A stretch of 64,000 bases of DNA from a virus, in IMG/VR virus record IMGVR_UViG_3300045391_000045, positions 1 to 64,000 of that record. One strand, written 5' to 3'. The position numbers and the translations under genes were made by a program. Under the pieces are notes generated by a model that was not told the origin of the DNA, did not search any database, and saw only the letters and a program-made list of their open reading frames with translations. Positions 1,840-50,613 of the stretch are shown one piece after another. Numbering within the stretch: the stretch's first letter is position 1; every line of letters begins with the position of its first letter.

Positions 1840-2622
1840 ATGAAGCGAGAGATTATTCAGGGTCTCAAGTTTCGTAAGCAGCCCGAGGGTTTCGATGCTA
1901 ATGAGCTTTCCGAAATCCTTGAGGCTGCTTATCTGAAGCAGCGACGCCCTAACAAGCATACACAGAAGAAGACATTTTCACCTAGCACTATCGGATATGG
2001 GCATGGCACATGCCCACGATATTGGTTCCTTGCCTTTACGGGCGGGATGTTTATTGACCAGGTAGATGCTCTAGGAATTGCCAACATGTCCAATGGTACT
2101 CAGGCTCACGAACGTATTGAGAAGTTGTTTGATGACTCTGGGATTCGCCTAGGAAATGAGATTGAAATTACGATGGACAGCCCGCCTATTCGCGGGTTTG
2201 CTGACGTAGAAATCAATTGGAAGGGTGAAGAGGTAATTGGTGAAATCAAGACAACACGTCAGGAATCGTTCCTTGTACGTCAGTCTACGATGAAGCCTAC
2301 AGCCAATCACCTATTCCAAATTCTCATTTATATGAAGGCTAGGAATCGAAAGATGGGCTTTCTGTTGTATGAGAATAAGAATTCACAGGAATTCCTCATT
2401 CTTCCTATTGAGATGAATGAACAGAACGAGAAGATTGTCAATAATGCACTTGAGTGGATGAGAGAGACATACAAGGCATATACAGAAGGCAATGTTCCAA
2501 ACAGACCACTACAGAAGCGCAGCAAGATTTGTAAGGGCTGCCCATTCTATGATTGGTGCTGGAGTGACGATTCTCCTGAGGGAAAGATTGATATTCCTGT
2601 AATGGAGGTTCCAAAGATTTGA
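1840..2622 (+). CDS. PD-(D/E)xK nuclease, Cas4/RecB-like exonuclease
   Basis: D...EIK nuclease motifs (GFADVE, GEIKTT), QxxxY motif, C-terminal Cys cluster CKGCPFYDWC typical of Cas4-like Fe-S nucleases. Confidence 0.7.
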   Translation: MKREIIQGLKFRKQPEGFDANELSEILEAAYLKQRRPNKHTQKKTFSPSTIGYGHGTCPRYWFLAFTGGMFIDQVDALGIANMSNGTQAHERIEKLFDDSGIRLGNEIEITMDSPPIRGFADVEINWKGEEVIGEIKTTRQESFLVRQSTMKPTANHLFQILIYMKARNRKMGFLLYENKNSQEFLILPIEMNEQNEKIVNNALEWMRETYKAYTEGNVPNRPLQKRSKICKGCPFYDWCWSDDSPEGKIDIPVMEVPKI

Positions 2623-2900
2623 TTACGTGTGCATACGCTGAGTGTGGTCGTTTGTTTGAGGCAAAGACGCATAATCAGCGTTATTGTTCAGACGAATGTT
2701 GCCGAAAGGCGACCAACGCTCGTTTGATGGAGCAATACTACGAAAAGAAGGCTCGTAGACAGGGCCACATTCGTGTATGCAAGAATGCTGACTGTAATAC
2801 AAGACTGTCCAGATACAATGACAGTAATGAATGTCAGCGTTGTGCTTCGGCCAAGGAAACTGAGCGCCGTAAGCAGTTGCTTAATCTAGTAGGAATTTAA
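2619..2900 (+). CDS. Cys-rich zinc-finger protein
   Basis: multiple CxxC pairs, basic. Confidence 0.45.
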   Translation: MITCAYAECGRLFEAKTHNQRYCSDECCRKATNARLMEQYYEKKARRQGHIRVCKNADCNTRLSRYNDSNECQRCASAKETERRKQLLNLVGI

Positions 2901-3487
2901 TGTCACTTGTAGACCTAAAGAAAACTAAGGCGAGTAGGGTCATGGGCATTGACTGCTCGACTCACTCGCTTGCTTTTACCATCTTCTTCAATAGACGTCC
3001 CATCAAGTGGGGCAAGATTAATTTCGAAGGCGCTGACGTTTTTGACAGGCTGGAGGATGCAGCAAATAAGCTGCGGGCAGTCAAGGACGAGTTTGATGTT
3101 GACTACATCGCTTTTGAGAGTGCCATCTTGGCTAGGACCAAGAACGCAGACGTGACAATCAAGTTGGCTATGGTGTATGGTGCTTGTATCGCAGAGCTTA
3201 TGCGTAAGGGTGTCAAGGTCGTAACAGTCAAGCCCTTGACATGGCAGTCGTACATCGGTAATCCTAACTTCAAGCCAGCAGAGAAGCTAGCTCTGAAGAA
3301 GGAGTTCCCAGACAAGTCAGCTTCGTGGTACTCTACAAAAATCAGAGAGCTTCGAAAGCAGAAGACGATGGACTACTTCAATAAGAAGTGGCCGCACATG
3401 GAGCTAACAGATAATGATGTTGGTGACAGCGCGGGAATTGCCTATTACGCCTACTACAGTCTAACGACTCGTGGTAAGGTGGACTAA
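2900..3487 (+). CDS. RuvC-like Holliday junction resolvase
   Basis: GIDCS, DYIAFES and DSAGIA motifs matching the RuvC catalytic D/E/D triad layout. Confidence 0.7.
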   Translation: MSLVDLKKTKASRVMGIDCSTHSLAFTIFFNRRPIKWGKINFEGADVFDRLEDAANKLRAVKDEFDVDYIAFESAILARTKNADVTIKLAMVYGACIAELMRKGVKVVTVKPLTWQSYIGNPNFKPAEKLALKKEFPDKSASWYSTKIRELRKQKTMDYFNKKWPHMELTDNDVGDSAGIAYYAYYSLTTRGKVD

Positions 3488-3731
3488 GGCGCAGGGCTTC
3501 GGCCCAAGCTTAGGAGGAGAAATGTCAGAATACATGGATTGTGATGCATGTGATTGGGTTGACATTGGGGTAGGAATGCAAATGGTTCGTCCTGACCATT
3601 TCTGCCGGGTTAAGAGTCATCGAATCGATGCTTATGCATACTATGATGAACTACGTGGTCAAGAACTTGTTGATGCAGTTGAGGAAAATTGGCCACCATT
3701 TTGGGACCCTGAGGCGGTGAGTGTAGATTGA
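3471..3731 (+). CDS. hypothetical protein
   Basis: 86 aa ORF preceded by hairpin-AAGCTT-AGGAGG. Confidence 0.45.
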   Translation: MVRWTKAQGFGPSLGGEMSEYMDCDACDWVDIGVGMQMVRPDHFCRVKSHRIDAYAYYDELRGQELVDAVEENWPPFWDPEAVSVD

Positions 3732-4216
3732 AGGTAGGAATTACTGGACATAGACCAGAGCGTCTTGAGGACCATGAAGATGCTGTTAAAGAGCTTATAT
3801 CAGAAGCACTTCAGCAATTGAATGCCACCCGTCTTTATCAGGGAATGGCTGCTGGTGTTGACCTTTGGTCTGCTAAAGAAGCATGGAAGCTAAAGATTCC
3901 TTATGCTGCCGTGAAGCCTTGGGCTGGACATAAGCCAAGAGTAGCAGACCGTATTGAGTATGCTAAGGTTCTTAAGCACGCTACCGCAATTATTGATGTT
4001 GACCCATCAATCGAATACCCAGGAGCTTGGGTATACAACAAGCGAAATGAATTTATTGTTGATGAGGTGGGCACGATGATTGCCGTTTGGGATGGAAAGC
4101 CATACGGAGGTACATACAACTGCATCGAATACGCGTGGAAGAAGGCAATCCCAGTTTTGAGGATTGACCCTGAAGAAAGGGTTATTGAATATGTCAGCGA
4201 AGAAGTACCTTTCTAA
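3728..4216 (+). CDS. SLOG/DUF1273-DUF2493-like protein (VGITGHRP motif)
   Basis: N-terminal KVGITGHRP motif typical of YpsA/SLOG-type phage proteins. Confidence 0.4.
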   Translation: MKVGITGHRPERLEDHEDAVKELISEALQQLNATRLYQGMAAGVDLWSAKEAWKLKIPYAAVKPWAGHKPRVADRIEYAKVLKHATAIIDVDPSIEYPGAWVYNKRNEFIVDEVGTMIAVWDGKPYGGTYNCIEYAWKKAIPVLRIDPEERVIEYVSEEVPF

Positions 4217-13620: not shown

Positions 13621-13749
13621 TTGACTTCCAAGTCTTGGAGGTGCTAAGATGGTATATAGATTGAAGGCGCTGTTCTTCAAGTTCCGCCCGGTGGTTGACA
13701 AGCTACTGAGCAGATGGTACGTTAGAAGAACAAAGTAAGCAACAAGCTT

Positions 13750-13868
13750 TCGGGTCGGCTGGATGAGGGTTATCTAACCTAAACAATTATACAGTCAATG
13801 GTAATTCCTGGTGGATTCCAGGGAGTGTGGTGACTATAACACCTCTCCCTCGCCAATAACATATCCGA
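13750..13868 (+). ncRNA. Y RNA-like / YrlA-related repeat unit a (GGGTCGG...TTATCTAAC...ACATATCCG), precedes tRNA-Ile
   Basis: shares 5' GGGTCGG, internal GGTTATCTAAC and 3' ACATATCCG motifs with six other units; multiple hairpins; Ro60 gene nearby. Confidence 0.45.
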
Positions 13869-13874
13869 AAACAA

Positions 13875-13949
13875 TGGGGTATAGCTCGGTCTGGTTAGAG
13901 CATTCCGCTGATAACGGAACGGTCGTCGGTTCAAATCCGACTGCCCCAA
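13875..13949 (+). tRNA. tRNA-Ile (anticodon GAT)
   Basis: D-stem GCTC/GAGC, anticodon arm TTCCG-CTGATAA-CGGAA, T-arm GTCGG-TTCAAAT-CCGAC, acceptor TGGGGTA/TGCCCCA. Confidence 0.6.
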
Positions 13950-13953
13950 CTTT

Positions 13954-14089
13954 ATGGGTCGGATTCAGTAGTTTAACTTAAATCCAAACCGCGTGTCCTA
14001 GGTTCGAATCCTAGTCCCGGCTTTCTTGTCGGGGTAGCTCAGTGGCAGAGCAGTGGTCCTTAAAAAACACTATTGAAACAACATATCCA
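13954..14089 (+). ncRNA. Y RNA-like (YrlA-like) unit b with permuted tRNA-like module (T-arm + 3' acceptor, 5-nt loop, 5' acceptor + D-arm)
   Basis: 13988-14022 ACCGC-GTGTC-CTAGG-TTCGAAT-CCTAG-TCCCGGC followed at 14028 by GTCGGGG-TA-GCTC-AGTGGCA-GAGC-A-GTGGT; acceptor halves pair 7/7, GTGGT pairs ACCGC 5/5. Confidence 0.55.
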
Positions 14090-14107
14090 TTAAATAACTT
14101 AAAATTT

Positions 14108-14249
14108 GCGGGTCGGAAGAATTCAGTTATCTTTCTACCACAAACAATCAGAAAACCGCAGGTTCGACTCCTCGGAGGGATGAATGTGAGAGGTCACAGC
14201 TAGGCATGAAGCTTAGTGAATCCAGCTTCTGAATTCTATAATATATCCG
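14108..14249 (+). ncRNA. Y RNA-like repeat unit c (degenerate T-arm-like element GGTTCGACTCC)
   Basis: 5' GGGTCGG, 3' ATATATCCG, internal ACCGC-AGGTTCGACTCC. Confidence 0.35.
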
Positions 14250-14257
14250 CAAAAGCT

Positions 14258-14355
14258 TTGGGTCGGATGAAGACGTTTATCGTAAGTTCAACTCTTATCA
14301 TCCCCCCTCATGGGGATGGGGCGTGGTGCCCACTCGTTTTCTACAACATACCCAT
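14258..14355 (+). ncRNA. Y RNA-like repeat unit d, precedes tRNA-Ser
   Basis: 5' GGGTCGGATG, hairpins ATCCCC-CCTCAT-GGGGAT and GGGC-GTGGT-GCCC, 3' ACATACCC. Confidence 0.35.
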
Positions 14356-14358
14356 TAT

Positions 14359-14445
14359 GGAAGGTCAATCCGATTGGCGACGGAACTTGTCTTGAAAACA
14401 AGCGAGGTGTGAAAGCCCTTAGGAGTTCGACTCTCCTACCTTCCG
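14359..14445 (+). tRNA. tRNA-Ser (anticodon TGA)
   Basis: acceptor GGAAGGT/ACCTTCC perfect, anticodon arm CTTGT-CTTGAAA-ACAAG, long variable arm, T-arm AGGAG-TTCGACT-CTCCT. Confidence 0.6.
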
Positions 14446-14730
14446 CTTTACCCTAAGGAGTAAAATTGACTGAGACAGAGAATGTCGGTCCTACATCGTA
14501 TCAGCTAGCAATCATCCTTGCACTTCAGAGCAAGCATGTATACGCTAACACAGTTAGTTACGATGAGATTGCACGACGACGTAAGGCAAGCAAGCGAGCG
14601 CGGCTACAGCGCAGAACAAACAGAAGGCTTGACACGACACGTCGCTCGTGATAAGGTTTTATTAGATGGTCGGCAAGCAGGGAAGAGAAGGCTACAGGAG
14701 CTTGAGCAACAACACCTTCCACCATCACAT

Positions 14731-14803
14731 GCGTCGTTAGTTCAGCGGTCAGAGCACTGCCCTGTCAAGGCAGAAGTCGCGGGTTCGAATCCCGTACGGC
14801 GCG
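14731..14803 (+). tRNA. tRNA-Asp (anticodon GTC)
   Basis: acceptor GCGTCGT/ACGGCGC, anticodon arm CTGCC-CTGTCAA-GGCAG, T-arm GCGGG-TTCGAAT-CCCGT. Confidence 0.6.
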
Positions 14804-14833
14804 CTTTCGTAAAGGAATAAAGAGGGAGTTCTA

Positions 14834-15034
14834 ATGGCACGAGTTAAGAAGTTTGACCTTGTTGAGCTTGACAAGGAAGGCTGGTTCTCTGCTAAGGTAA
14901 GTGGAAAGTTCCGGGGTTTGGTCGAGAAGACTGGACGAAGCAACTACACTCTTCACCTTGGCAAGAACGATGTAACTAACTTCAAGACTAAGAAGGCTCT
15001 TGAGACTTGGCTCACCGAGAAGTGGGCATCATAA
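14834..15034 (+). CDS. hypothetical protein
   Basis: 66 aa ORF with RBS AAAGAGGGAG. Confidence 0.45.
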   Translation: MARVKKFDLVELDKEGWFSAKVSGKFRGLVEKTGRSNYTLHLGKNDVTNFKTKKALETWLTEKWAS

Positions 15035-15052
15035 TTAAATATTGATAAACGT

Positions 15053-15114
15053 TCGGGTCGGATGTAATTGCTTATCTATTATGGGAATAAAACGCGATTA
15101 CTCTAACATATCCG
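15053..15114 (+). ncRNA. Y RNA-like repeat unit e (short)
   Basis: GGGTCGGATG...TTATCTATT...ACATATCCG. Confidence 0.3.
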
Positions 15115-15139
15115 TTCTAAACTTCTAGCCCTAACAATT

Positions 15140-15263
15140 TCGGGTCGGAGTTTCTTGGTTACCTTACTATGCATGAGAAGTTGTCGGTTCGAATCCGGCC
15201 GGGTCCATTCATGGGCCTGTAGTTTAATTGGCAAAACTTACACCGAGGAACGTTTCATATCCG
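15140..15263 (+). ncRNA. Y RNA-like (YrlA-like) unit f with permuted tRNA-like module
   Basis: 15183-15207 GTCGG-TTCGAAT-CCGGC-CGGGTCC-A, loop TTCAT, then 15213 GGGCCTG-TA-GTTT-AATTGGCA-AAAC; acceptor halves pair 7/7 with wobbles; bounded by GGGTCGG and CATATCCG. Confidence 0.5.
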
Positions 15264-15306
15264 TCTTAATTGTTAGGGCTAAGCTTTTGTCTAGAAAAGG
15301 AGAGAC

Positions 15307-15493
15307 AATGCCTCGCTACGAGAAGAAGGTCAAGATTAACGCAAACCTCGTAAAGAAGTATGACGAGGAATACTACCGAGTCCTTGACGATGTGCAGATG
15401 CGTGAGCTAAAGTTCAAGGGACATGTCCGGCCGGAAGGTAAGGTTGTTGAAACCAGGACACACATCATCAGCTATTACATTGAGGTGGATTGA
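15307..15493 (+). CDS. hypothetical protein
   Basis: 62 aa, RBS AAAAGGAGAGACA. Confidence 0.45.
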
Positions 15494-15933: not shown

Positions 15934-17550
15934 ATGTCTAATGCACTTGGTAAGTTTGCTGCTTCTCAGAAGCAGGAGCGCGTTGCTACGCCTCAGACAA
16001 AGCGTACCCCTGGTCGTACGGATGAGGTCAAGAACAACGCGGGCGGGTTTGTGTTCAAGGTAGACGACAAGTCTCGTCTTGAGCGCTTCCTGGTGTTGGG
16101 TACTGACAAGGGTACCTATTACGTTGGTGAGCAGAAGTTGACGGCTCAGAACATTTCCTTCCTGAAGGAGATGGTCCGTAAGGATGAGCGTCTGGTCGTG
16201 GACACTGCTGTTGACGTCTCTGTAAACGCTCGTGCGCTTAAGAATTCTCCTGCGCTGTTCGCTATGGCTCTGGTCATGACGGAGGGCAAGGACAAGGCTT
16301 ACGCTCGTGAGGCCGTACAGAAGGTTGCTCGTACGTCTACCCACCTTTTCGAGTACGCACAGTACATCGATGACCTGGGTGGTTGGGGTCGAGCAAAGCG
16401 TCGTTCTGTCGCTGAGTGGTACGAGAACAAGTCTATCGATGCGCTTGCGTATCAGGCTGTGAAGTACCGTCAGAGGAACGGTTGGACGCACCGTGACCTT
16501 TTCCGTCTTGCTCACCCTCAGGGTGTAGACCAGGGTGTTGGTAACTTCATCCTTGGCAAGGACGTTGAGGCTGAGGTGGAAATTCTTAAGGGCTTCGCTG
16601 CAATGCAGTCTGCGACTTCGGTCAAGGATGTTATTCGCACGCTGGAGACTTTCAAGAACCTTCCTTGGGAGACCATCCCTACTCAGTTCCTCAAGGATGT
16701 GAAGGTCTGGAAGACTCTGTTCTACAACGGTCAGCTTCGTGGCCAGGCTCTCATTCGCAACATTACTCGACTCGCTCGAATTGGTGCGTTTGATGACATG
16801 GTTTTCGCAACTGACTACGCGAACGCAATTGCTAACCAGGAAATGATTCAGAAGACTCGTCTTCACCCAATCAACTTCCTGAATGCGGTTGTTGTTCACG
16901 AGAGTGGACAGATTGACCGTAACGGTTACAGCATGTGGAGTGCCGGACGTAAGAAGGATTGGAAGTCTAACGGAAAGATTGTGGATGCTCTCAATGAGGG
17001 ATTCCACATGGCATTCAAGACTGTCGAGCCTTCTGGCAAGAGGACTCTGGTTGCGACTGACGTGTCTGGCTCAATGAGTCAGGCTGCCATCGGACTTGAC
17101 CTCTCTTGTGCTCAGGTTTCTGCGGCTGTTGCTATGACGGTTGCGCGTTCCGAGCCTTACAGTGACATTGTTGGCTTCTCTAGCAGCATTGTTGACTTGG
17201 GCATTACCGCTAAGAGTTCTTTTGCCGACGCAATGCGTAAGGTGAGTAACAGGAACTTTGGTGGTACGGATGCGGCTGCTGCAATTAAGTACGCTAACCA
17301 GAAGGGAATTCAGGTTGACACCTTCGTAGTTATCACTGATAACGAGACGTGGGGCGGAAGCCAGAAGCCTTTCCAGGCACTTAAGCAGTACCGTCAGAAG
17401 ACCGGAATTGATGCGCGTCTTGCGGTTCTCGGTGTGGCGTCTACGGACTTCACCATCGCTGACCCTACGGACCGTGGAATGATGGACTTCGTTGGTTTCG
17501 ATGCAAATGCGCCTAAGGCCCTCGCGGACTTCAGCGCTGGTCGTATCTGA
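15934..17550 (+). CDS. rsr: Ro60-like ribonucleoprotein (TROVE domain + C-terminal vWA/MIDAS)
   Basis: 538 aa; TROVE-like N-terminal region; MIDAS motif VATDVSGSM...TD; RBS AAAGGATTAGAAAAATG. Confidence 0.8.
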   Translation: MSNALGKFAASQKQERVATPQTKRTPGRTDEVKNNAGGFVFKVDDKSRLERFLVLGTDKGTYYVGEQKLTAQNISFLKEMVRKDERLVVDTAVDVSVNARALKNSPALFAMALVMTEGKDKAYAREAVQKVARTSTHLFEYAQYIDDLGGWGRAKRRSVAEWYENKSIDALAYQAVKYRQRNGWTHRDLFRLAHPQGVDQGVGNFILGKDVEAEVEILKGFAAMQSATSVKDVIRTLETFKNLPWETIPTQFLKDVKVWKTLFYNGQLRGQALIRNITRLARIGAFDDMVFATDYANAIANQEMIQKTRLHPINFLNAVVVHESGQIDRNGYSMWSAGRKKDWKSNGKIVDALNEGFHMAFKTVEPSGKRTLVATDVSGSMSQAAIGLDLSCAQVSAAVAMTVARSEPYSDIVGFSSSIVDLGITAKSSFADAMRKVSNRNFGGTDAAAAIKYANQKGIQVDTFVVITDNETWGGSQKPFQALKQYRQKTGIDARLAVLGVASTDFTIADPTDRGMMDFVGFDANAPKALADFSAGRI

Positions 17551-18912: not shown

Positions 18913-18990
18913 GCCCCAGTATCGCCACTGGCTTCTAACCAGTCGTTAACAGCGTAATGGAGTATGCAGGTTCGAATCCTGTCTGGGGTA
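18913..18990 (+). tRNA. atypical tRNA-like gene (anticodon TCT, Arg) with 5-nt D region and 22-nt variable arm
   Basis: acceptor GCCCCAG/CTGGGGT, anticodon arm ACTGG-CTTCTAA-CCAGT, T-arm GCAGG-TTCGAAT-CCTGT; no D-arm can be folded. Confidence 0.4.
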
Positions 18991-24386: not shown

Positions 24387-24665
24387 GGGGTAGCTTGGTT
24401 TCGACTTTGCTGGACGGGATATAAACGCAACCCTTCTTGGTCAAAGAAGTAAAACGGGCCAACCAAATAAATGCAAACTCTATGAATGCATCTGCTTTCG
24501 CTCTAGCAGCGTAAAAGCCGGGTTTGTCGGGAACCTAGGAACAGAATCCCGACTAGTACAAAATGTGTAGATAATGTGTAAGACCCTTCAGTGTGATTGA
24601 CAATGGTTGTAGAACGGTTATATGCTAGATAGTAAAGGACGCGGGTTCGACTCCCGCCTACTCCA
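24387..24665 (+). ncRNA. ssrA: tmRNA (ssrA), tag ANSMNASAFALAA
   Basis: 5' GGGGTAGCTTGGTTTCGAC...GGACGGGAT like tmRNA 5' end; in-frame tag GCA AAC TCT ATG AAT GCA TCT GCT TTC GCT CTA GCA GCG TAA (24473-24514); 3' T-arm GCGGG-TTCGACT-CCCGC + acceptor CTACTCC pairing GGGGTAG. Confidence 0.8.
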
Positions 24666-24676
24666 CACAGAAAGAT

Positions 24677-25447: not shown

Positions 25448-26332
25448 ATGTGGTACATTGGTTTCGCCAGTCTCTTTATTCTCGTCGGTCTGGTCGCTTT
25501 CGTAGTCGGTTTCATGACTAAGAATGACCCGAGCGTTCGAAAGGGGGCCTATGGTGTAACTGCCGCAATGGTTCTTCTGCTTGTGGTTGTCACTGCGTTT
25601 AATTCTGTGACTAAGGTTGATGCTCGTAACGTCGGTATTCAGACTGCTTTTGGTCGGTACCAGGGACAGCTTGACAATGGTCTTCAGATTATCGCACCTT
25701 GGTCTGAGCACGAGGATTTCTCGACGCAGATTCAGTACCTTGACCTTGATGGCGACAAGTGGGCTGATGGCGCTCCGGTCACGTTTTCTGGTGGTGGTCG
25801 TGGTGTTGTTTACGCTACTCCGCGTTGGTACATCAACAAGGAGGATGCTGGTCAGCTCTGGAAGAAGTACAAGACTCTTGACAACGTGAGTGACCGTCTT
25901 GTAAGGTCTTCTGTGAAGGACTCGTTCCGAGCCGTCATGACGGAGTACACCCCGAATGACGCTCGTACCAACGTTCGTGAGATTACTCAGAAGGTCGAAG
26001 ATGACCTTGCCCGTACGCTTGGTGATGATGGTATTAAGATTGACTCCATCAGCATCCGTGATATTCAGCTTGACGACCGTACTCAGGCTTCTCTCGACAA
26101 GATTGTTCAGGCGAACAACGACATTGAGCGAGCCAAGGCGGAGCAGCAGCGTGCTAAGATTGACGCTGAGACGCTGAAGATTAAGCAGAAGGGCGGTAAC
26201 CTTACCGAGGGTGGTCTTACTGACAAGTGTCTCACGGTGATGGACAAGTGGGACGTCAAGAAGAATGGTAACCTTCCTGCGGGATTCTCCTGCAATGGTG
26301 TGGGTACTCCGTTCACTGTCACCAACAAGTGA
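25448..26332 (+). CDS. SPFH/band-7 (stomatin/prohibitin-like) membrane protein
   Basis: N-terminal TM then SPFH-like core, C-terminal coiled coil. Confidence 0.65.
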   Translation: MWYIGFASLFILVGLVAFVVGFMTKNDPSVRKGAYGVTAAMVLLLVVVTAFNSVTKVDARNVGIQTAFGRYQGQLDNGLQIIAPWSEHEDFSTQIQYLDLDGDKWADGAPVTFSGGGRGVVYATPRWYINKEDAGQLWKKYKTLDNVSDRLVRSSVKDSFRAVMTEYTPNDARTNVREITQKVEDDLARTLGDDGIKIDSISIRDIQLDDRTQASLDKIVQANNDIERAKAEQQRAKIDAETLKIKQKGGNLTEGGLTDKCLTVMDKWDVKKNGNLPAGFSCNGVGTPFTVTNK

Positions 26333-27778: not shown

Positions 27779-27784
27779 CGTCCT

Positions 27785-27934
27785 TGTAGCTTAAAAGGAA
27801 GAGCGCCGTAAAAACGGAGACGGGTCATAATAGGAAAGGTTGCGGATGCACCGAATGGCTCTAGTAGGGTCTGTAGGGAAGCGCGTTTTCCAAGCCTATT
27901 TACAGTGGTGTGAGTTCGAATCTCACCAGGGACA
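27785..27934 (+). ncRNA. interrupted tRNA-like gene: tRNA 5' half and 3' half separated by ~95-nt insertion
   Basis: 5' GTCCTTG-TA-GCTT-AAAAGGAA-GAGC pairs with 3' ...GTGAG-TTCGAAT-CTCAC-CAGGGAC-A; no anticodon arm can be folded between them. Confidence 0.4.
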
Positions 27935-28817: not shown

Positions 28818-29885
28818 ATGGTACACGTTTCGAAGATTTTCTCGCTCGATGCGTTGCAGAAGGATATCGATGCGGGATTGGTACGTTCACAGGTAAATGA
28901 GGATGGGACGCTCCGCATTTACAATTACACCGAAGAGGTTCAGTACAAGCGAATGTGGAATGACGTTACGCTGAATTGTCGTGGCCTTATTCTCGACAAT
29001 TACATGCACGTTGTTGCTCGTCCATGGAAGAAGTTCTTCAATTTCGGTGAGCGTCCTCTTCTATTCAGCACTGACACTCCGGTTGAGGTGACTGACAAGA
29101 AGGATGGTTCATTGGGTATTCTTTATCGTCACCCAATGACCGGGGATTACCGAATTGCAACTCGTGGCTCTTTCTTGTCTGACCAGGCTATTCACGCTAC
29201 AAAGGTCTGGGACAACAAGTACAGCCACATCGCACAGCCTTGGGATGGAGTTACATTCCTGTTTGAGATTGTGTACCCTGACAATCGCATTGTGCTGGAT
29301 TACGGTGAGCTTGATGACCTAATCTTGCTGGGTGCCGTTCACAATCAGTATGGATGGTACTACGGTCCGAACGAGGCTGCTGGGATGCTCAACTGGACTG
29401 GTCCTGTCACTGAGGTCTTTGAGTACCGGACCACGAACGACTGCTTCAAGGTGCACCGTTCAAATGCTGAGGGTCTGGTAATTCGGGCCGGTAGCGAGAT
29501 GGTCAAGTTGAAGCAGGAGGACTACGTGGCTTTGCACAAGCTAGTCACAGGTCTGAACGAGCGTGCTGTATGGGAGCGCTTGAAGGCAGGCGAGACACGT
29601 GATAGTATCTGTGCATCGCTTCCCGATGAGTTCCACGGATTTGTTGACAAGGTTGCGGATGAGCTAGAGACAAAGTTCAACGAGATTTACCACAGTTCCC
29701 ACGTGGATTACTGTAAGGTGTTGAACATAATGCCTGGCAAATCAAGCATGAGTAAGGCAGACTGGCGTAAGATGTTCGCATCGCACGCTGTTAAGATGCC
29801 TAACTACGACTTGATTTTCAACTACCTTGACAACCGTCCGGTACAGGAGTCTATTTGGAAAATGATTCGTCCTAAGGGCGAGTAA
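28818..29885 (+). CDS. ATP-dependent RNA ligase, Rnl1-like
   Basis: nucleotidyltransferase motif I VTDKKDGSLG (KxDG), 355 aa. Confidence 0.65.
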   Translation: MVHVSKIFSLDALQKDIDAGLVRSQVNEDGTLRIYNYTEEVQYKRMWNDVTLNCRGLILDNYMHVVARPWKKFFNFGERPLLFSTDTPVEVTDKKDGSLGILYRHPMTGDYRIATRGSFLSDQAIHATKVWDNKYSHIAQPWDGVTFLFEIVYPDNRIVLDYGELDDLILLGAVHNQYGWYYGPNEAAGMLNWTGPVTEVFEYRTTNDCFKVHRSNAEGLVIRAGSEMVKLKQEDYVALHKLVTGLNERAVWERLKAGETRDSICASLPDEFHGFVDKVADELETKFNEIYHSSHVDYCKVLNIMPGKSSMSKADWRKMFASHAVKMPNYDLIFNYLDNRPVQESIWKMIRPKGE

Positions 29886-29924: not shown

Positions 29925-30203
29925 ATGAAAAATCTGGATTATGAAAAAGTCATTGATGGATATAACGACCTTCGTGAAACATGCCTTGTAATTGCTAAGC
30001 TTAACGATGAGCTGATGGGTCCTGACAGATGGCTGAAGTTTGCCATCCAAGACTCGGATATCACGTTGATGTTTACAGAGCGAGGCATCGTGTGCTATGG
30101 TAGTGCTTACACGACACAGACGATGGACAACGAACACTTCAGTTTCATGATTCCGTTTGAATATCTAGAGGAGTTTGAGGCAAATGCTAGAACTGGTGAT
30201 TAA
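29925..30203 (+). CDS. hypothetical protein
   Basis: hairpin-CAAGCTT-GGAGGAGAAATG upstream. Confidence 0.5.
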   Translation: MKNLDYEKVIDGYNDLRETCLVIAKLNDELMGPDRWLKFAIQDSDITLMFTERGIVCYGSAYTTQTMDNEHFSFMIPFEYLEEFEANARTGD

Positions 30204-30603
30204 CCGGGGGATTCCTGGTAGTGGAAAGTCAACATATGCTCGTGAGTGGGTATTGAAGCCAGGAACCAGACGTGCTAGGGTTAATCGTGATGACATTCGA
30301 ATGCAGCTCTATGGAGTTGAATTCGGTGTCCCGATTGAGGAGACTGTAGTAACGGCGGTTGAAGACCAGATGATTAACACCTTGCTTTCTGAGGGTGTCT
30401 CAGTCATCATTGATGACTGTAACATCAGTCAGCGATACATCAACAGGTTTACAAAGATGGGCGAGAAGCATGGCGCAGAGGTGAGAGTTAATCTCATCAA
30501 CGTTGACCTTGCGACTGCTCTGGACCGGAATAGCAAGCGTGACCGTTTCGTTCCAACCCATGTAATTCAGGATATGTATAAGAGACTTCAGGAGTCGCTG
30601 TAA
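30175..30603 (+). CDS. polynucleotide 5'-kinase (P-loop, T4 Pnk kinase-domain-like)
   Basis: Walker A GIPGSGKST, RxxxR; adjacent to RNA ligase. Confidence 0.6.
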   Translation: MRQMLELVINRGIPGSGKSTYAREWVLKPGTRRARVNRDDIRMQLYGVEFGVPIEETVVTAVEDQMINTLLSEGVSVIIDDCNISQRYINRFTKMGEKHGAEVRVNLINVDLATALDRNSKRDRFVPTHVIQDMYKRLQESL

Positions 30604-42955: not shown

Positions 42956-42988
42956 CATGTGTTAAGATAGATACATCGGGTCGGACGG

Positions 42989-43017
42989 TTGACAAATAAT
43001 CCGACCTAACATACACT
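42989..43017 (+). promoter_or_regulatory. promoter TTGACA-N17-TACACT
   Basis: within GGGTCGGACGG...TCCGAC hairpin region. Confidence 0.4.
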
Positions 43018-43473: not shown

Positions 43474-43493
43474 ATGTGTTAAACTTGAATATA

Positions 43494-43595
43494 TCGGGTC
43501 GATTGGATAGGGTTATCTAACAATCAATTGGTGATGAGCCTTCGGGCAACCCTGCGGCGGGTATAGCCGCATCTCCCTTCCTCAACATATCCGAT
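43494..43595 (+). ncRNA. Y RNA-like repeat unit g (GGGTCG...GGGTTATCTAACAATCAATTGG...ACATATCCG), precedes tRNA-Gly
   Basis: same terminal motifs as units a-f; internal UUAUCU-AA-UCAAUUG resembles the loop of vertebrate Y RNAs. Confidence 0.4.
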
Positions 43596-43602
43596 GTATT
43601 TG

Positions 43603-48118: not shown

Positions 48119-48343
48119 ATGTCCATTGAGAGATGGGAAAATGAAGGAGGATTTATCCAGATGACTCATTCATATTTTGACAGAATGGGTTTTGAGGAAA
48201 CACACGAAGGCAGTCAGACAGACTGTCCAACCAAGCAGTGTCGTAAGGAACGCGCCTACTACCGCAGGATTCCAGCGATGGACCCGTGGCCTGATGGTTC
48301 CGGGCCATACGGCACCGACCCATGGATGCAGGAGGGTATCTAA
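48119..48343 (+). CDS. hypothetical protein
   Basis: RBS TGGAGGAAGCTTGTATG. Confidence 0.4.
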   Translation: MSIERWENEGGFIQMTHSYFDRMGFEETHEGSQTDCPTKQCRKERAYYRRIPAMDPWPDGSGPYGTDPWMQEGI

Positions 48344-48347
48344 ACAA

Positions 48348-48842
48348 ATGCACGTCGTACCAAAATTTGAAGGTGACCACTTCTTCCTGTCTAACTTTTA
48401 CGAGGCTCCCATACGTTTTGTGATGGGTGATGAGATGGTGGTCATGGCTACTGGGGAGCACGCTTTCCAGGCTGCCAAGGGCAACGCCATCCTTGACAAG
48501 GCAGAGAAGATGAGATACGTTCTTTCTGTTGCCGATGCCCCAACACCTGCCAAGGCAAAGTACCTTGGTCGTTCAGTCAAGATAGACCTTGACTGGTGGG
48601 AACGCATCAAGGTAGACTGTATGCGCGAAATTGTATTCCAGAAGTTTTTGCAGAACCCTGAGCTGAGAGTTAAGCTCTTGAATACAGGTGATGCTATGCT
48701 TGTGGAAGGAAATACCTGGGATGATAAATTCTGGGGGCGAGTAGATGGCAAGGGCTATAATAAGCTTGGTGTCATTTTGATGGAAGTGCGCGGATACTGG
48801 TATTGGCAGACACGTAGAAACAATCCGGAGATGGGGTCATGA
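48348..48842 (+). CDS. NADAR (DUF1768, YbiA-like) domain protein
   Basis: FLSNFYEAPIRF, GEHAFQAAK, WDDKFWG motifs typical of NADAR N-glycosidase-like domain. Confidence 0.6.
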   Translation: MHVVPKFEGDHFFLSNFYEAPIRFVMGDEMVVMATGEHAFQAAKGNAILDKAEKMRYVLSVADAPTPAKAKYLGRSVKIDLDWWERIKVDCMREIVFQKFLQNPELRVKLLNTGDAMLVEGNTWDDKFWGRVDGKGYNKLGVILMEVRGYWYWQTRRNNPEMGS

Positions 48843-49962: not shown

Positions 49963-50613
49963 ATGAGAGAGTATTCAAAGACCGATAACCTTTACAAGCG
50001 TAACCCTAAGAAGAAGTCTGAGCTTATCGTCGGAGATTACACCCGGCCGGAATTCGCTCATATCGTTTCTTGGTGGGTTACCGAGAAGGTTGATGGTACT
50101 AACGTTCGTCTTTGGTTCGACAAGGACGAGAACAGTGAATATCGTGGGCGTACAGACAATGCACATTTCAGCCCGGTGCAGCATGAATTCATGAACAACC
50201 TTCGTGATTCAATTAAGGAAGATGCAGTAAGCCTTATCCATCGTTTTGGGCTTGATGAGCTGCTTATCTTTGGTGAGCTTTATGGACCGAAGATTCTTTC
50301 TGGTGGCAACTACTCTGACAGTCTGGAGTTCCGAGCGTTTGACATGATGGTTAACGATAAGGTATGGTTGCGACCTGACGCAGTTGAGGAGAACGCAGCA
50401 GACCTTGGGCTGACCATGGTTCCGAACCTTGGCATGATGACTACGGCTCAAATCTTTTTCATGGTAGCTGGCGGATTCAAGTCCACCTTTGCCAAGAACA
50501 AGGATTTCGATGCTGAGGGTGTTATTGCACAGCCTGCGGTAAACCTGTATGACCAGCGTGGAGAGCGTGTTAAGTTCAAGTTGAAGCACAACGATTTGAA
50601 GCATGTAAGTTGA
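49963..50613 (+). CDS. Rnl2-family RNA ligase (minimal adenylyltransferase domain)
   Basis: motif I TEKVDGTN (KxDG), LIFGELYG, KFKLK; 216 aa. Confidence 0.6.
   Translation: MREYSKTDNLYKRNPKKKSELIVGDYTRPEFAHIVSWWVTEKVDGTNVRLWFDKDENSEYRGRTDNAHFSPVQHEFMNNLRDSIKEDAVSLIHRFGLDELLIFGELYGPKILSGGNYSDSLEFRAFDMMVNDKVWLRPDAVEENAADLGLTMVPNLGMMTTAQIFFMVAGGFKSTFAKNKDFDAEGVIAQPAVNLYDQRGERVKFKLKHNDLKHVS

Follow-up and report, generated by a model that had tools for sequence, protein, structure and literature searches.

Putative YrlA-class Y RNA with a permuted tRNA-like domain upstream of the Ro60 gene of a Streptomyces phage

The locus and the fold of unit f

The virus record IMGVR_UViG_3300045391_000045 was analysed over its positions 1 to 64,000, and this 64-kb stretch is referred to here as the window. 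Judging from its sequence, the window belongs to a siphophage of Streptomyces, in the Gilsonvirus group (Stanwilliamsviridae, cluster BE-type). Within it are 31 tRNA genes and a transfer-messenger RNA (tmRNA) gene, all of them on the plus strand. The subject of this report is a unit of ~123 nt on the same strand, unit f (15141-15263), whose end at 15263 lies 671 nt before the start, at 15934, of a plus-strand gene for a Ro60 orthologue. Related phages annotate this orthologue as a 'Ro-like RNA binding protein', and the region is at most ~89% identical to Kenrey, Gilson and their relatives. On the sequence comparisons given below we propose that unit f is a Y RNA of the YrlA class, an assignment to which we give a probability of roughly 0.8.

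Unit f has a core at 15183-15237 in which the T arm comes first and is followed by the 3' acceptor strand, a short loop, the 5' acceptor strand, the dinucleotide UA and the D arm. The core is enclosed by a stem of two helices formed from GGGUCGGAG and CAUAUCCG. An earlier note on this DNA had described the core as the second permuted tRNA-like module of a repeat family, and every element that it quoted was found in place when the sequence was read again: the T arm GTCGG-TTCGAAT-CCGGC at 15183-15199, CGGGTCC at 15200-15206 with the A that comes next (15207), the loop TTCAT at 15208-15212, GGGCCTG at 15213-15219, TA at 15220-15221, the D arm GTTT-AATTGGCA-AAAC at 15222-15237, and the bounding motifs GGGTCGGAG at 15142-15150 and CATATCCG at 15256-15263. 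The acceptor halves do form all 7 pairs, though with two wobbles (G3-U70 and U6-G67) and not the three that had been counted, and the D stem GTTT/AAAC, said to be perfect, is 100% paired in homologues, with compensatory changes. The module also recurs in the repeat family as claimed, but it is not simply the second of its kind, since another unit (unit d) has a third, degenerate one.

The minimum free energy (MFE) fold of 15138-15268 on the plus strand is an unconstrained cloverleaf of -37.1 kcal/mol. Its outer helix is CGGGU/AUCCG, and an internal loop separates this from an inner helix of 9 bp, on which stand a small hairpin at the position of a variable arm (the V hairpin), the T arm, the closed 8-bp acceptor and the D arm. 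The minus strand folds poorly (-19.8 kcal/mol). Neither ARAGORN nor Rfam (RF00005) calls a canonical tRNA in this interval. The outer closing helix has 5 pairs, which are 100% paired in 13 related phages, with covariation of the terminal pair from C-G to U-A, and each of the seven paralogous units of the window (units a to g) has this helix in its MFE fold. The inner helix has a different sequence in every one of these paralogues, and its pairing is always retained.

The acceptor pairing had been put beyond chance in the earlier note, and a count over the plus strand of the window agrees. There are 37 T-arm-like sites, and a closed 7/7 acceptor follows only three of them, at 13998 (unit b), 14282 (unit d) and 15183 (unit f), compared with ~0.3 expected. 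All three sites are inside units of the form GGGTCGGA...ATAYCC upstream of Ro60, and no closed 7/7 acceptor was found at the 3' ends of the real tRNAs of the window. GGGTCGGA itself is present in 6 copies versus 1.4 expected, with five of the copies clustered at 13956-15149.

Conservation and covariation

Homologues of unit f were found in ~30 Streptomyces phage records at 70-99% identity, unannotated except in two that carry a tRNA call. A lack of conservation in homologous phages, named in the earlier note as the finding that would speak against the module, was not seen, as the unit is kept with covariation in these records. Insertions and deletions of 1 nt occur within the unit among the homologues, indicating that it is not coding.

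In order to follow the individual pairs, we used two alignments. In the first, sequences from 13 related Streptomyces phages were aligned with MAFFT and folded with RNAalifold, which returned the same helices, with compensatory double changes at 8 of the 29 pairs. The proportion of paired cells is 99.5%, compared with 32-55% when the partners are slid, and in the slid controls double changes are seen at 0-1 pairs and the covariation score is at most 0.061, against 8 pairs and a score of 0.285 for the true partners. The second alignment was model-independent and held 23 distinct tRNA-like cores of the f type and the b type from four phage genera, its sources being Gilson-, Annadreamy- and Faust-type viruses, BRock and the Rhodococcus phage Trina. 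Here 98.6% of cells are paired (33-50% in the controls), double changes are seen at 13 of 16 pairs, and the covariation score reaches 0.816 (at most 0.18 in the controls). The acceptor of Blueeyedbeauty and Limpid, UAGUCUC/GAGGCUA, has nearly no sequence in common with CGGGUCC/GGGCCUG of the window and is fully paired. The -1:73 position also pairs and covaries, being U:A, G:C or U-G.

The tertiary Levitt pair 15:48 can be followed in the same way. In unit f it joins A15 (15227) to U48 (15182), and it is A:U in all Streptomyces f-type modules. In b-type modules it is G15:C48 or A15:U48, and overall 26 of 28 modules are compatible with the pair. Chen et al. likewise argued for a tRNA-like L-shape from covariation of the Levitt pair (PMC4201824).

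Relationship to YrlA RNAs

The earlier note had proposed a search against the Rfam YrlA family, and its permuted tRNA-like module does match. A permissive local search with RF02553 aligned 15178-15238 to model positions 26-82 with 28.5 bits, and unit b (13965-14079) matched the full model with 29 bits; both scores are below the gathering score of 69, and a search of the window at the gathering threshold gave no YrlA match. The published YrlA of mycobacteriophage ET08 (Fig. 1D of PMC4201824) scores 37.4 bits with RF02553, over the core only, and is thus itself sub-threshold. The threshold is therefore uninformative for actinophage YrlAs, and it reflects a limit of the model and no biological criterion. 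R1, a covariance model for which no sequences other than the 13 of unit f were used, finds the ET08 YrlA at full length (positions 3697-3842 of the ET08 locus) with 55.7 bits and E~2e-13. R1 also finds a unit at 2965-3094 of the BRock locus (66.5 bits), ~95 nt upstream of the Ro-like gene, as well as five units of Trina (up to 65.8 bits) and one of Jay2Jay (40.5 bits), all upstream of the Ro gene. Every significant R1 match is on the Ro60 strand.

YrlA RNAs are recognized (PMC4201824; 10.1101/312249) by their proximity to Ro60 on the same strand, by the 5' motif and YUAY, and by a T arm that precedes the D arm, with a closed stem in the acceptor position between the two. The UA linker is a further feature, as is a pyrimidine at position 48 together with the Levitt pair. 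Unit f has all of these, including the UUCGAAU T loop, the GG of the D loop, the UA linker and YUAY, with the exception of the 5' motif, which is one position off. Proximity was defined as ~4 kb or less from a Ro60 (TROVE) orthologue on the same strand (PMC4201824), and unit f is within this distance. The same authors defined the 5' motif as GNCGAAN0-1G and placed a YUAY motif at the start of the variable region (PMC4201824), while the conserved UA linker is described as a YrlA feature by Wang et al. (10.1101/312249). A member of the class would also be expected to occur as a stable, Ro60-bound RNA that is modified by the tRNA enzymes TruB and DusA. In unit f the sequence GUCGGAG (15144-15150) is one substitution from this motif (A to G, position 5); ET08 is also one off and Jay2Jay is exact. 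The likeness to a circularly permuted tRNA drawn in the earlier note is also the one drawn in the YrlA literature, which adds that the acceptor stem is closed (10.1101/312249).

The fold of unit f exists, it is under selection, it is homologous to a published phage YrlA and it adjoins Ro60. RNAs of this kind near a phage Ro60 have been known since Chen et al. 2014, who listed 22 phages with YrlA near Ro60 (PMC4201824), and CcrColossus, Bacillus phage G and phiLo are later cases (PMC12135203). Ro60 is encoded in ~358 phage genomes. Unit f adds members from Streptomyces phages, for which no report of a Y RNA was found in the limited library of literature that we searched.

Several points weigh against placing unit f in the YrlA class. 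The Rfam score is 28.5 bits versus a gathering score of 69, with only the tRNA-like core covered, and the 5' motif GUCGGAG is one position from GNCGAAN0-1G. As a whole the unit has a modest thermodynamic z-score of -1.5, and a scan for promoters and terminators came out near the shuffled expectation, with no signal above chance. The aligned phages are related by descent, so fewer independent events lie behind the data than the cell counts suggest; the relevant comparison is with the slid partners, in which this relatedness is kept. Finally, Ro60 binding, an effector partner and a role in repair are argued only by analogy and from the gene neighbourhood.

The array of Y-like units

With its filters turned off, R1 picks out six units at full length in the interval 13748-15268, and a candidate seventh is found elsewhere in the window. 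Their positions and those of the parts of unit f and the genes discussed are given in Table 1.

Table 1. Positions in the window of the parts of unit f, of the Y-like units and of associated genes
Feature	Position	Strand	Basis or remarks
Outer closing helix, 5' strand CGGGU, pairs with 15259-15263	15141-15145	+	RNAalifold and pair counts, 13 phages
5' motif GGGUCGGAG, presumed Ro60 recognition element	15142-15150	+	Invariant in 13 phages; present in units a-f
Inner closing helix, 5' strand GUUUCUUGG, anticodon-stem position, pairs with 15243-15251	15150-15158	+	8 pairs, 98% paired in 13 phages
UUAC, YUAY motif opening the variable region	15159-15162	+	GGUUAYC kept in Streptomyces phages, Trina, ET08 and Jay2Jay
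V hairpin CUUA-CUAUGCA-UGAG, 4-bp stem, 7-nt loop, variable-arm position (tentative)	15163-15177	+	Whole-unit MFE fold
Linker AAGUU, 5 nt; U15182 = tRNA position 48, Levitt partner of A15	15178-15182	+	15:48 compatibility
T arm GUCGG-UUCGAAU-CCGGC, 5' of the D arm	15183-15199	+	100% paired, 3 of 5 pairs with compensatory changes; matches T arm of Rfam YrlA
3' acceptor strand CGGGUCC and A at discriminator position (73)	15200-15207	+	7 pairs form, all 7 with double changes (23 cores)
Acceptor-closing loop UUCAU; U15212 (position -1) can pair with A15207	15208-15212	+	
5' acceptor strand GGGCCUG	15213-15219	+	
U8-A9 linker, acceptor to D arm	15220-15221	+	UA or UG in all 28 modules
D arm GUUU-AAUUGGCA-AAAC, G18 and G19 in the loop	15222-15237	+	100% paired; compensatory GUUU/AAAC, GUGU/ACAC, GCUC/GAGC
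Inner closing helix, 3' strand CCGAGGAAC	15243-15251	+	MFE, RNAalifold, pair counts
Asymmetric internal loop, 3' side GUUUCAU, opposite CGGA	15252-15258	+	Unpaired in MFE and consensus folds; (A/C)AUAU context kept in units a-g
Outer closing helix, 3' strand AUCCG	15259-15263	+	RNAalifold, pair counts
Unit a	13748-13872	+	R1 23.5 bits; head unrelated
Unit b	13952-14094	+	R1 51.9 bits; full tRNA-like domain; folds like f, without V hairpin
Unit c	14106-14254	+	R1 27.3 bits; head is a T-arm-like element only
Unit d	14256-14359	+	R1 29.1 bits; degenerate tRNA-like domain
Unit e	15051-15119	+	R1 39.9 bits; bare 69-nt stem-loop, without tRNA-like part
Unit f	15138-15268	+	R1 140.3 bits; full tRNA-like domain
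Unit g, candidate seventh	43492-43598	+	R1 20.2 bits; same closing module; ends 3 nt before tRNA-Gly(tcc)
Ro60 orthologue, phage (538 aa), presumed protein partner	15934-17550	+	Pfam vWA_Ro60 E=5e-56, TROVE E=3e-37
tmRNA, standard	24387-24668	+	
Band-7/SPFH protein	25448-26332	+	
T4 Rnl1-type RNA ligase	28818-29885	+	
P-loop (AAA_33) kinase	30175-30603	+	
NADAR-domain protein	48177-48842	+	
Second RNA ligase (PF09414)	49963-50613	+	

Folded individually, the units have a closing module in common: an outer helix GGGU/AYCC, a loop with CGG(A/C) on its 5' side, and an inner helix whose sequence changes from copy to copy. Units a to f are interleaved with tRNA-Ile, tRNA-Ser, tRNA-Asp and two small open reading frames (ORFs), and none of the units is annotated in the related records examined. 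The gaps between units and tRNA genes are 0-3 nt: the end of unit a (13872) is followed by tRNA-Ile from 13875; tRNA-Ile ends at 13950 and unit b starts at 13952; unit d and tRNA-Ser meet at 14359; and unit g ends at 43598, with tRNA-Gly at 43602. This abutment suggests that the units may be co-transcribed with the tRNAs and that their ends may be produced by RNase P and RNase Z. In the degenerate module of unit d, the T-like arm is GUAAG-UUCAACU-CUUAU, the closed stem pairs 7/7 (CAUCCCC/GGGGAUG) and there is a small hairpin, GGGC-GUGGU-GCCC; the module is without the UA linker and is missed by Rfam YrlA. A short hairpin that begins with GGGTCGGA at 42978 (42977-43007) is separate from unit g.

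Arrays of this kind are also present in other phages. BRock (2612-3094) has four units directly upstream of Ro60, with tRNA-like modules in the first and last units, like b and f here, and a different 5' motif, GAUGCGNAG. Trina (2662-3922) likewise has an array of Y-like units directly upstream of Ro60, in which the 5' motif is ACCGAAUG or GCCGAC; part of this array is marked in the Trina record as a 209-nt pseudo 'tRNA-OTHER'. In Annadreamy (NC_048719.1, 67046-67230), unit f is kept only as its 5' half, through the T arm. At the syntenic position there are no small ORFs and no Ro60, and tRNA-Arg and RNase H come next, such that this locus is an apparent natural deletion in a viable phage.

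As the paralogues have one docking stem and different heads (two full, one degenerate, one T-arm-only, one with no tRNA-like part, and a minimal one), they amount to a natural dissection of a two-module design. The unit-f homologues add a covariation-rich set of YrlAs from Streptomyces phages that annotation either misses or labels as tRNAs and that Rfam scores below threshold. A better covariance model for actinophage Y RNAs could be started from the alignment, which could also be used to correct false tRNA annotations.

Proposed role and known systems

Ro60/Y RNA particles are conserved from bacteria to humans, and human Ro60 is an autoantigen in lupus and Sjogren's syndrome. In Deinococcus radiodurans and Salmonella, Y RNAs dock on Ro60 via the closing stem, gate the ring and tether PNPase and other partners (PMC4201824; 10.1101/312249). 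The elbow in YrlA's tRNA-like domain is thought to recruit a tRNA-binding factor (10.1101/312249).

A possible way of working for unit f can be proposed on this model. The two ends of the unit pair in a bipartite closing stem, with an outer helix GGGU/AUCC, an asymmetric internal loop containing the conserved CGGA(U)G, and the inner helix of 9 bp. On the analogy of other Y RNAs, the phage Ro60 ring protein would dock on this stem and contact the 5' motif. The inner helix takes the place of the anticodon stem of a tRNA and bears a tRNA-shaped effector domain in circularly permuted order: the variable hairpin, the T arm, the 3' acceptor strand, the loop, the 5' acceptor strand, U8-A9 and the D arm. 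The unit is likely transcribed together with the neighbouring tRNAs, and tRNA-processing enzymes may cut its ends. In M. smegmatis YrlA the acceptor is also of tRNA length; with its 7 bp and covarying -1:73 position, unit f may likewise be a substrate of RNase P, and cleavage at 15212/15213 is plausible. The RNA could then bind phage Ro60 and gate the cavity of the ring, and/or tether PNPase or a partner that recognizes the tRNA elbow. The particle may serve RNA quality control or repair in infection, alongside the tRNA set, the tmRNA, the RNA ligases, the kinase and the Band-7 protein.

The gene neighbourhood is consistent with this proposal. The genes for the Band-7 protein, the ligases, the kinase and the NADAR-domain protein are in the same arm as Ro60, and two RNA ligases and a polynucleotide kinase are annotated in the Kenrey record. 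Neighbourhoods of Ro60, YrlA, RNA ligase and Band-7 have been discussed by Wang et al. (10.1101/312249), and since the Band-7 protein, ligases and kinase of the window echo them, RNA quality control or repair in infection is the most likely setting. By this analogy, unit f probably partners phage Ro60 in such a process. The units lie in a compact RNA-maintenance arm together with the 31 tRNAs, the tmRNA, the two RNA ligases, the kinase and the Band-7 protein, and this arm offers a tractable system in which to find out what is recruited by the tRNA-like domain. For specialists the size of the array, its modularity and the RNA-repair context may be worth following.

The closest published RNA is the YrlA of ET08 (PMC4201824), which is also phage-encoded and located upstream of a Ro60 orthologue on the same strand. 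It shares with unit f a closing-stem motif of the GNCGA type, GGUUAYC/YUAY, a V region, the T arm, the closed acceptor, the UA linker and the D arm. However, its acceptor stem is longer and interrupted, its 5' motif is GCCGAGAG compared with GUCGGAG here, and one unit was detected at its locus compared with six or seven in the window; the host genus and the phage family also differ. In Jay2Jay the 5' motif, GUCGAAAG, is the exact match to GNCGAAN0-1G. M. smegmatis YrlA (PMC4201824) is an actinobacterial RNA that, like unit f, has a 7-bp acceptor of tRNA length, and its precursor also holds YrlB with a T arm, which may be compared with units c and d. This RNA is cellular, not phage-encoded, and its cleavage by RNase P, CCA addition and Ro60 binding were demonstrated by experiment.

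The YrlA of Salmonella Typhimurium (crystal structure 6CU1; 10.1101/312249) has the same permuted T arm, closed acceptor and D arm, the same nucleotides for tertiary contacts (T and D loops, pyrimidine 48, UA linker, Levitt pair), and a Ro60-binding module beyond the equivalent of the anticodon stem. It differs in its 6-bp acceptor, its short variable loop and its rsr-yrlBA-rtcBA operon, and the sequences are too distant for the Rfam gathering score. In the Thermus phage phiLo (PMC12135203) several Y RNA-like genes, Yrl1 and Yrl2, are located directly upstream of the phage Ro60, as they are here. In vitro, the phiLo Yrls bind phiRo60 and enter into ternary complexes with it and host PNPase (PMC12135203), which supports the way of working proposed for unit f. 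By description alone they differ from it, being stem-bulge-stem RNAs with a CGAA motif for which no tRNA-like domain is reported.

The V hairpin and alternative explanations

The V hairpin forms in the MFE fold of the whole unit and is not stable when folded in isolation. In several clades it has the geometry of an anticodon arm: the stem is 4-5 bp long, the loop of 7 nt carries U at position 2 and A at position 7, and 4-5 nt separate the hairpin from the T stem. This geometry is found in 6 of 11 sequences (the window, Kenrey, Gilson-like, Faust-like and Blueeyedbeauty-like phages, and Trina_1), with a chance of 0.4-3% each under a criterion set after the data had been seen, and it is absent from Moab, BRock, ET08, Jay2Jay and Trina_5. 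The middle triplet of the loop varies (AUG, GUG, UGG, GAU, GCA), and the loop of the window is without a purine at position 37. Long variable arms resembling those of class II tRNAs have already been described for YrlAs (10.1101/312249).

A bolder interpretation is that in this clade unit f is a four-armed tRNA permuted at the junction of the D arm and the anticodon arm, with the V hairpin as a mimic of the anticodon arm. The RNA could be charged, or act as a decoy or sensor for host nucleases that target tRNA, and it would be one of six or seven paralogous Y RNAs giving Ro60 interchangeable effector heads. We regard this as a long shot. If it is true, the dimeric-tRNA origin of Y RNAs would gain direct support at the sequence level from the anticodon-like hairpin, which is specific to the clade.

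It is quite improbable that unit f is instead a genuine permuted or split tRNA gene, whose acceptor loop would be cleaved (by RNase P, with 3' trimming and CCA addition) while the closing stem holds the halves together, giving a chargeable or decoding tRNA, or a full tRNA decoy in which the V hairpin is the anticodon arm. The 7-bp acceptor of tRNA length with its discriminator base and covarying -1:73 position would fit such a gene, as would the V geometry in several lineages at the low chance values given above, the occurrence of G-1:C73 with a GUG loop triplet in Blueeyedbeauty, and the cleavage of M. smegmatis YrlA by RNase P followed by acquisition of CCA (PMC4201824). ARAGORN called a tRNA in all 8 of 8 re-permuted constructs, but it did so in 40-84% of the controls with a shuffled V region as well, so the test is non-discriminating; it is no evidence on the V hairpin and supports the body of acceptor, D arm and T arm only. 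The hairpin is unstable in isolation, its geometry fails in five sequences under a post hoc criterion, and its triplet is not conserved, with no purine at position 37 in the window. In addition, the phage already has a tRNA-His, CCA is not encoded, and the closing stem has the Y RNA motif and no splice-type junction. The permuted tRNA genes of Cyanidioschyzon merolae and some archaea are matured by a splicing-type endonuclease and a ligase into decoding tRNAs with conserved anticodons, whereas unit f has a Y RNA closing stem at the position of the anticodon stem and a candidate anticodon that is unconserved.

Two tRNA annotations overlap homologues of unit f. In Blueeyedbeauty, gene 99 (1805-1877 of the locus) is annotated as tRNA-His(gtg) over the 5' half of the homologue, and in Sham (ON645339.1), gene 97 (1810-1871 of the locus) is annotated as tRNA-Ser(cga), also over the 5' half. 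These look like false tRNA calls made from the V hairpin and the T arm, as no D stem can form. The middle triplet of the V loop is GUG in Gilson-like and Blueeyedbeauty-like phages, which is probably the reason for the tRNA-His(gtg) annotation in Blueeyedbeauty. Blueeyedbeauty and Limpid combine the acceptor pair G-1:C73 with a V loop CUGUGAA on a perfect 5-bp stem; this resembles two identity elements of bacterial tRNA-His and may be a coincidence. Sham also has a tRNA-Leu(ctg), tRNA-Pro(cca), tRNA-Asp(gat) and tRNA-Val(gtc) that were apparently named by reading the anticodon as a codon, where relatives have Gln, Trp, Ile and Asp.

Another possibility, which we consider very improbable, is that the tRNA-like fold is only a processing signal, a 'punctuation' at which RNase P or RNase Z would cut the long transcript of tRNAs and ORFs, without a role for Ro60. 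Units a, d and g do abut tRNA genes, and tRNA-like structures that are cleaved by RNase P to form RNA ends are known (10.1101/312249). This explanation does not account for the GGGUCGGA/AUAUCC closing module common to the seven units, including unit e without a tRNA-like part, or for the constant linkage to Ro60 in four genera, or for the homology to a published family of Ro60-associated RNAs.

The order of T arm, 3' acceptor strand, spacer, 5' acceptor strand and D arm is also that of a junction between two tRNA genes, and unit f might be a non-functional relic of such a tandem junction, the 3' half of one gene and the 5' half of the next, left by turnover of tRNA genes. Genes for tRNAs are densely packed in the region and some of them abut, a dimeric-tRNA origin has been proposed for YrlA (10.1101/312249), and R1 weakly matches real tRNA junctions (for example 1052-1129 of the ET08 locus, 22 bits). 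However, the acceptor halves of unit f pair with each other 7/7, which is seen at no real tRNA 3' end in the window, and compensatory changes keep all of the helices, including the closing stem, in four phage genera. There is neither an anticodon arm nor a T arm after the D arm, and the unit is always near Ro60, all of which makes a relic hardly credible.

We dismiss, as having practically no chance of being correct, an intrinsic terminator (the acceptor hairpin followed by TAGTTTAATT was listed as terminator-like by a pattern scan, but there are 6 such sites versus 2.5 +/- 1.8 in shuffled sequence, and the 'T run' is the covarying U8-A9 and D stem), part of a protein-coding gene (an ORF runs from a TTG start over 15155-15493, but homologues have 1-nt indels inside it and relatives start the coding sequence at an ATG equivalent to 15308), and a piece of a two-piece tmRNA (the Rfam permuted tmRNA model RF04321 gives 16.1 bits versus a gathering score of 47, with E=1.2, and the window has a standard tmRNA at 24387-24668).

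Other RNA genes of the window

The tag peptide predicted for the tmRNA is ANSMNASAFALAA, and the Kenrey record has ANSNFALAA. Directly after tRNA-Arg(gcg), Rfam finds a tRNA at 18913-18990 on the plus strand (34.2 bits) that ARAGORN does not report. An unannotated tRNA-like RNA of ~155 nt is also present at 27780-27934 on the plus strand, directly after tRNA-Leu(gag) and between the Band-7 gene and the Rnl1-type ligase gene, with a score of 38.2 bits in a local search with the Rfam tRNA model. Besides a 7-bp acceptor it contains D and T arms, and in place of the normal anticodon arm there is a hairpin with a 4-bp stem and a 4-nt loop together with an extra arm of ~88 nt. This RNA is kept in 23 Streptomyces phage records and recalls the 'band-7-associated tRNA' of Wang et al. 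(10.1101/312249).

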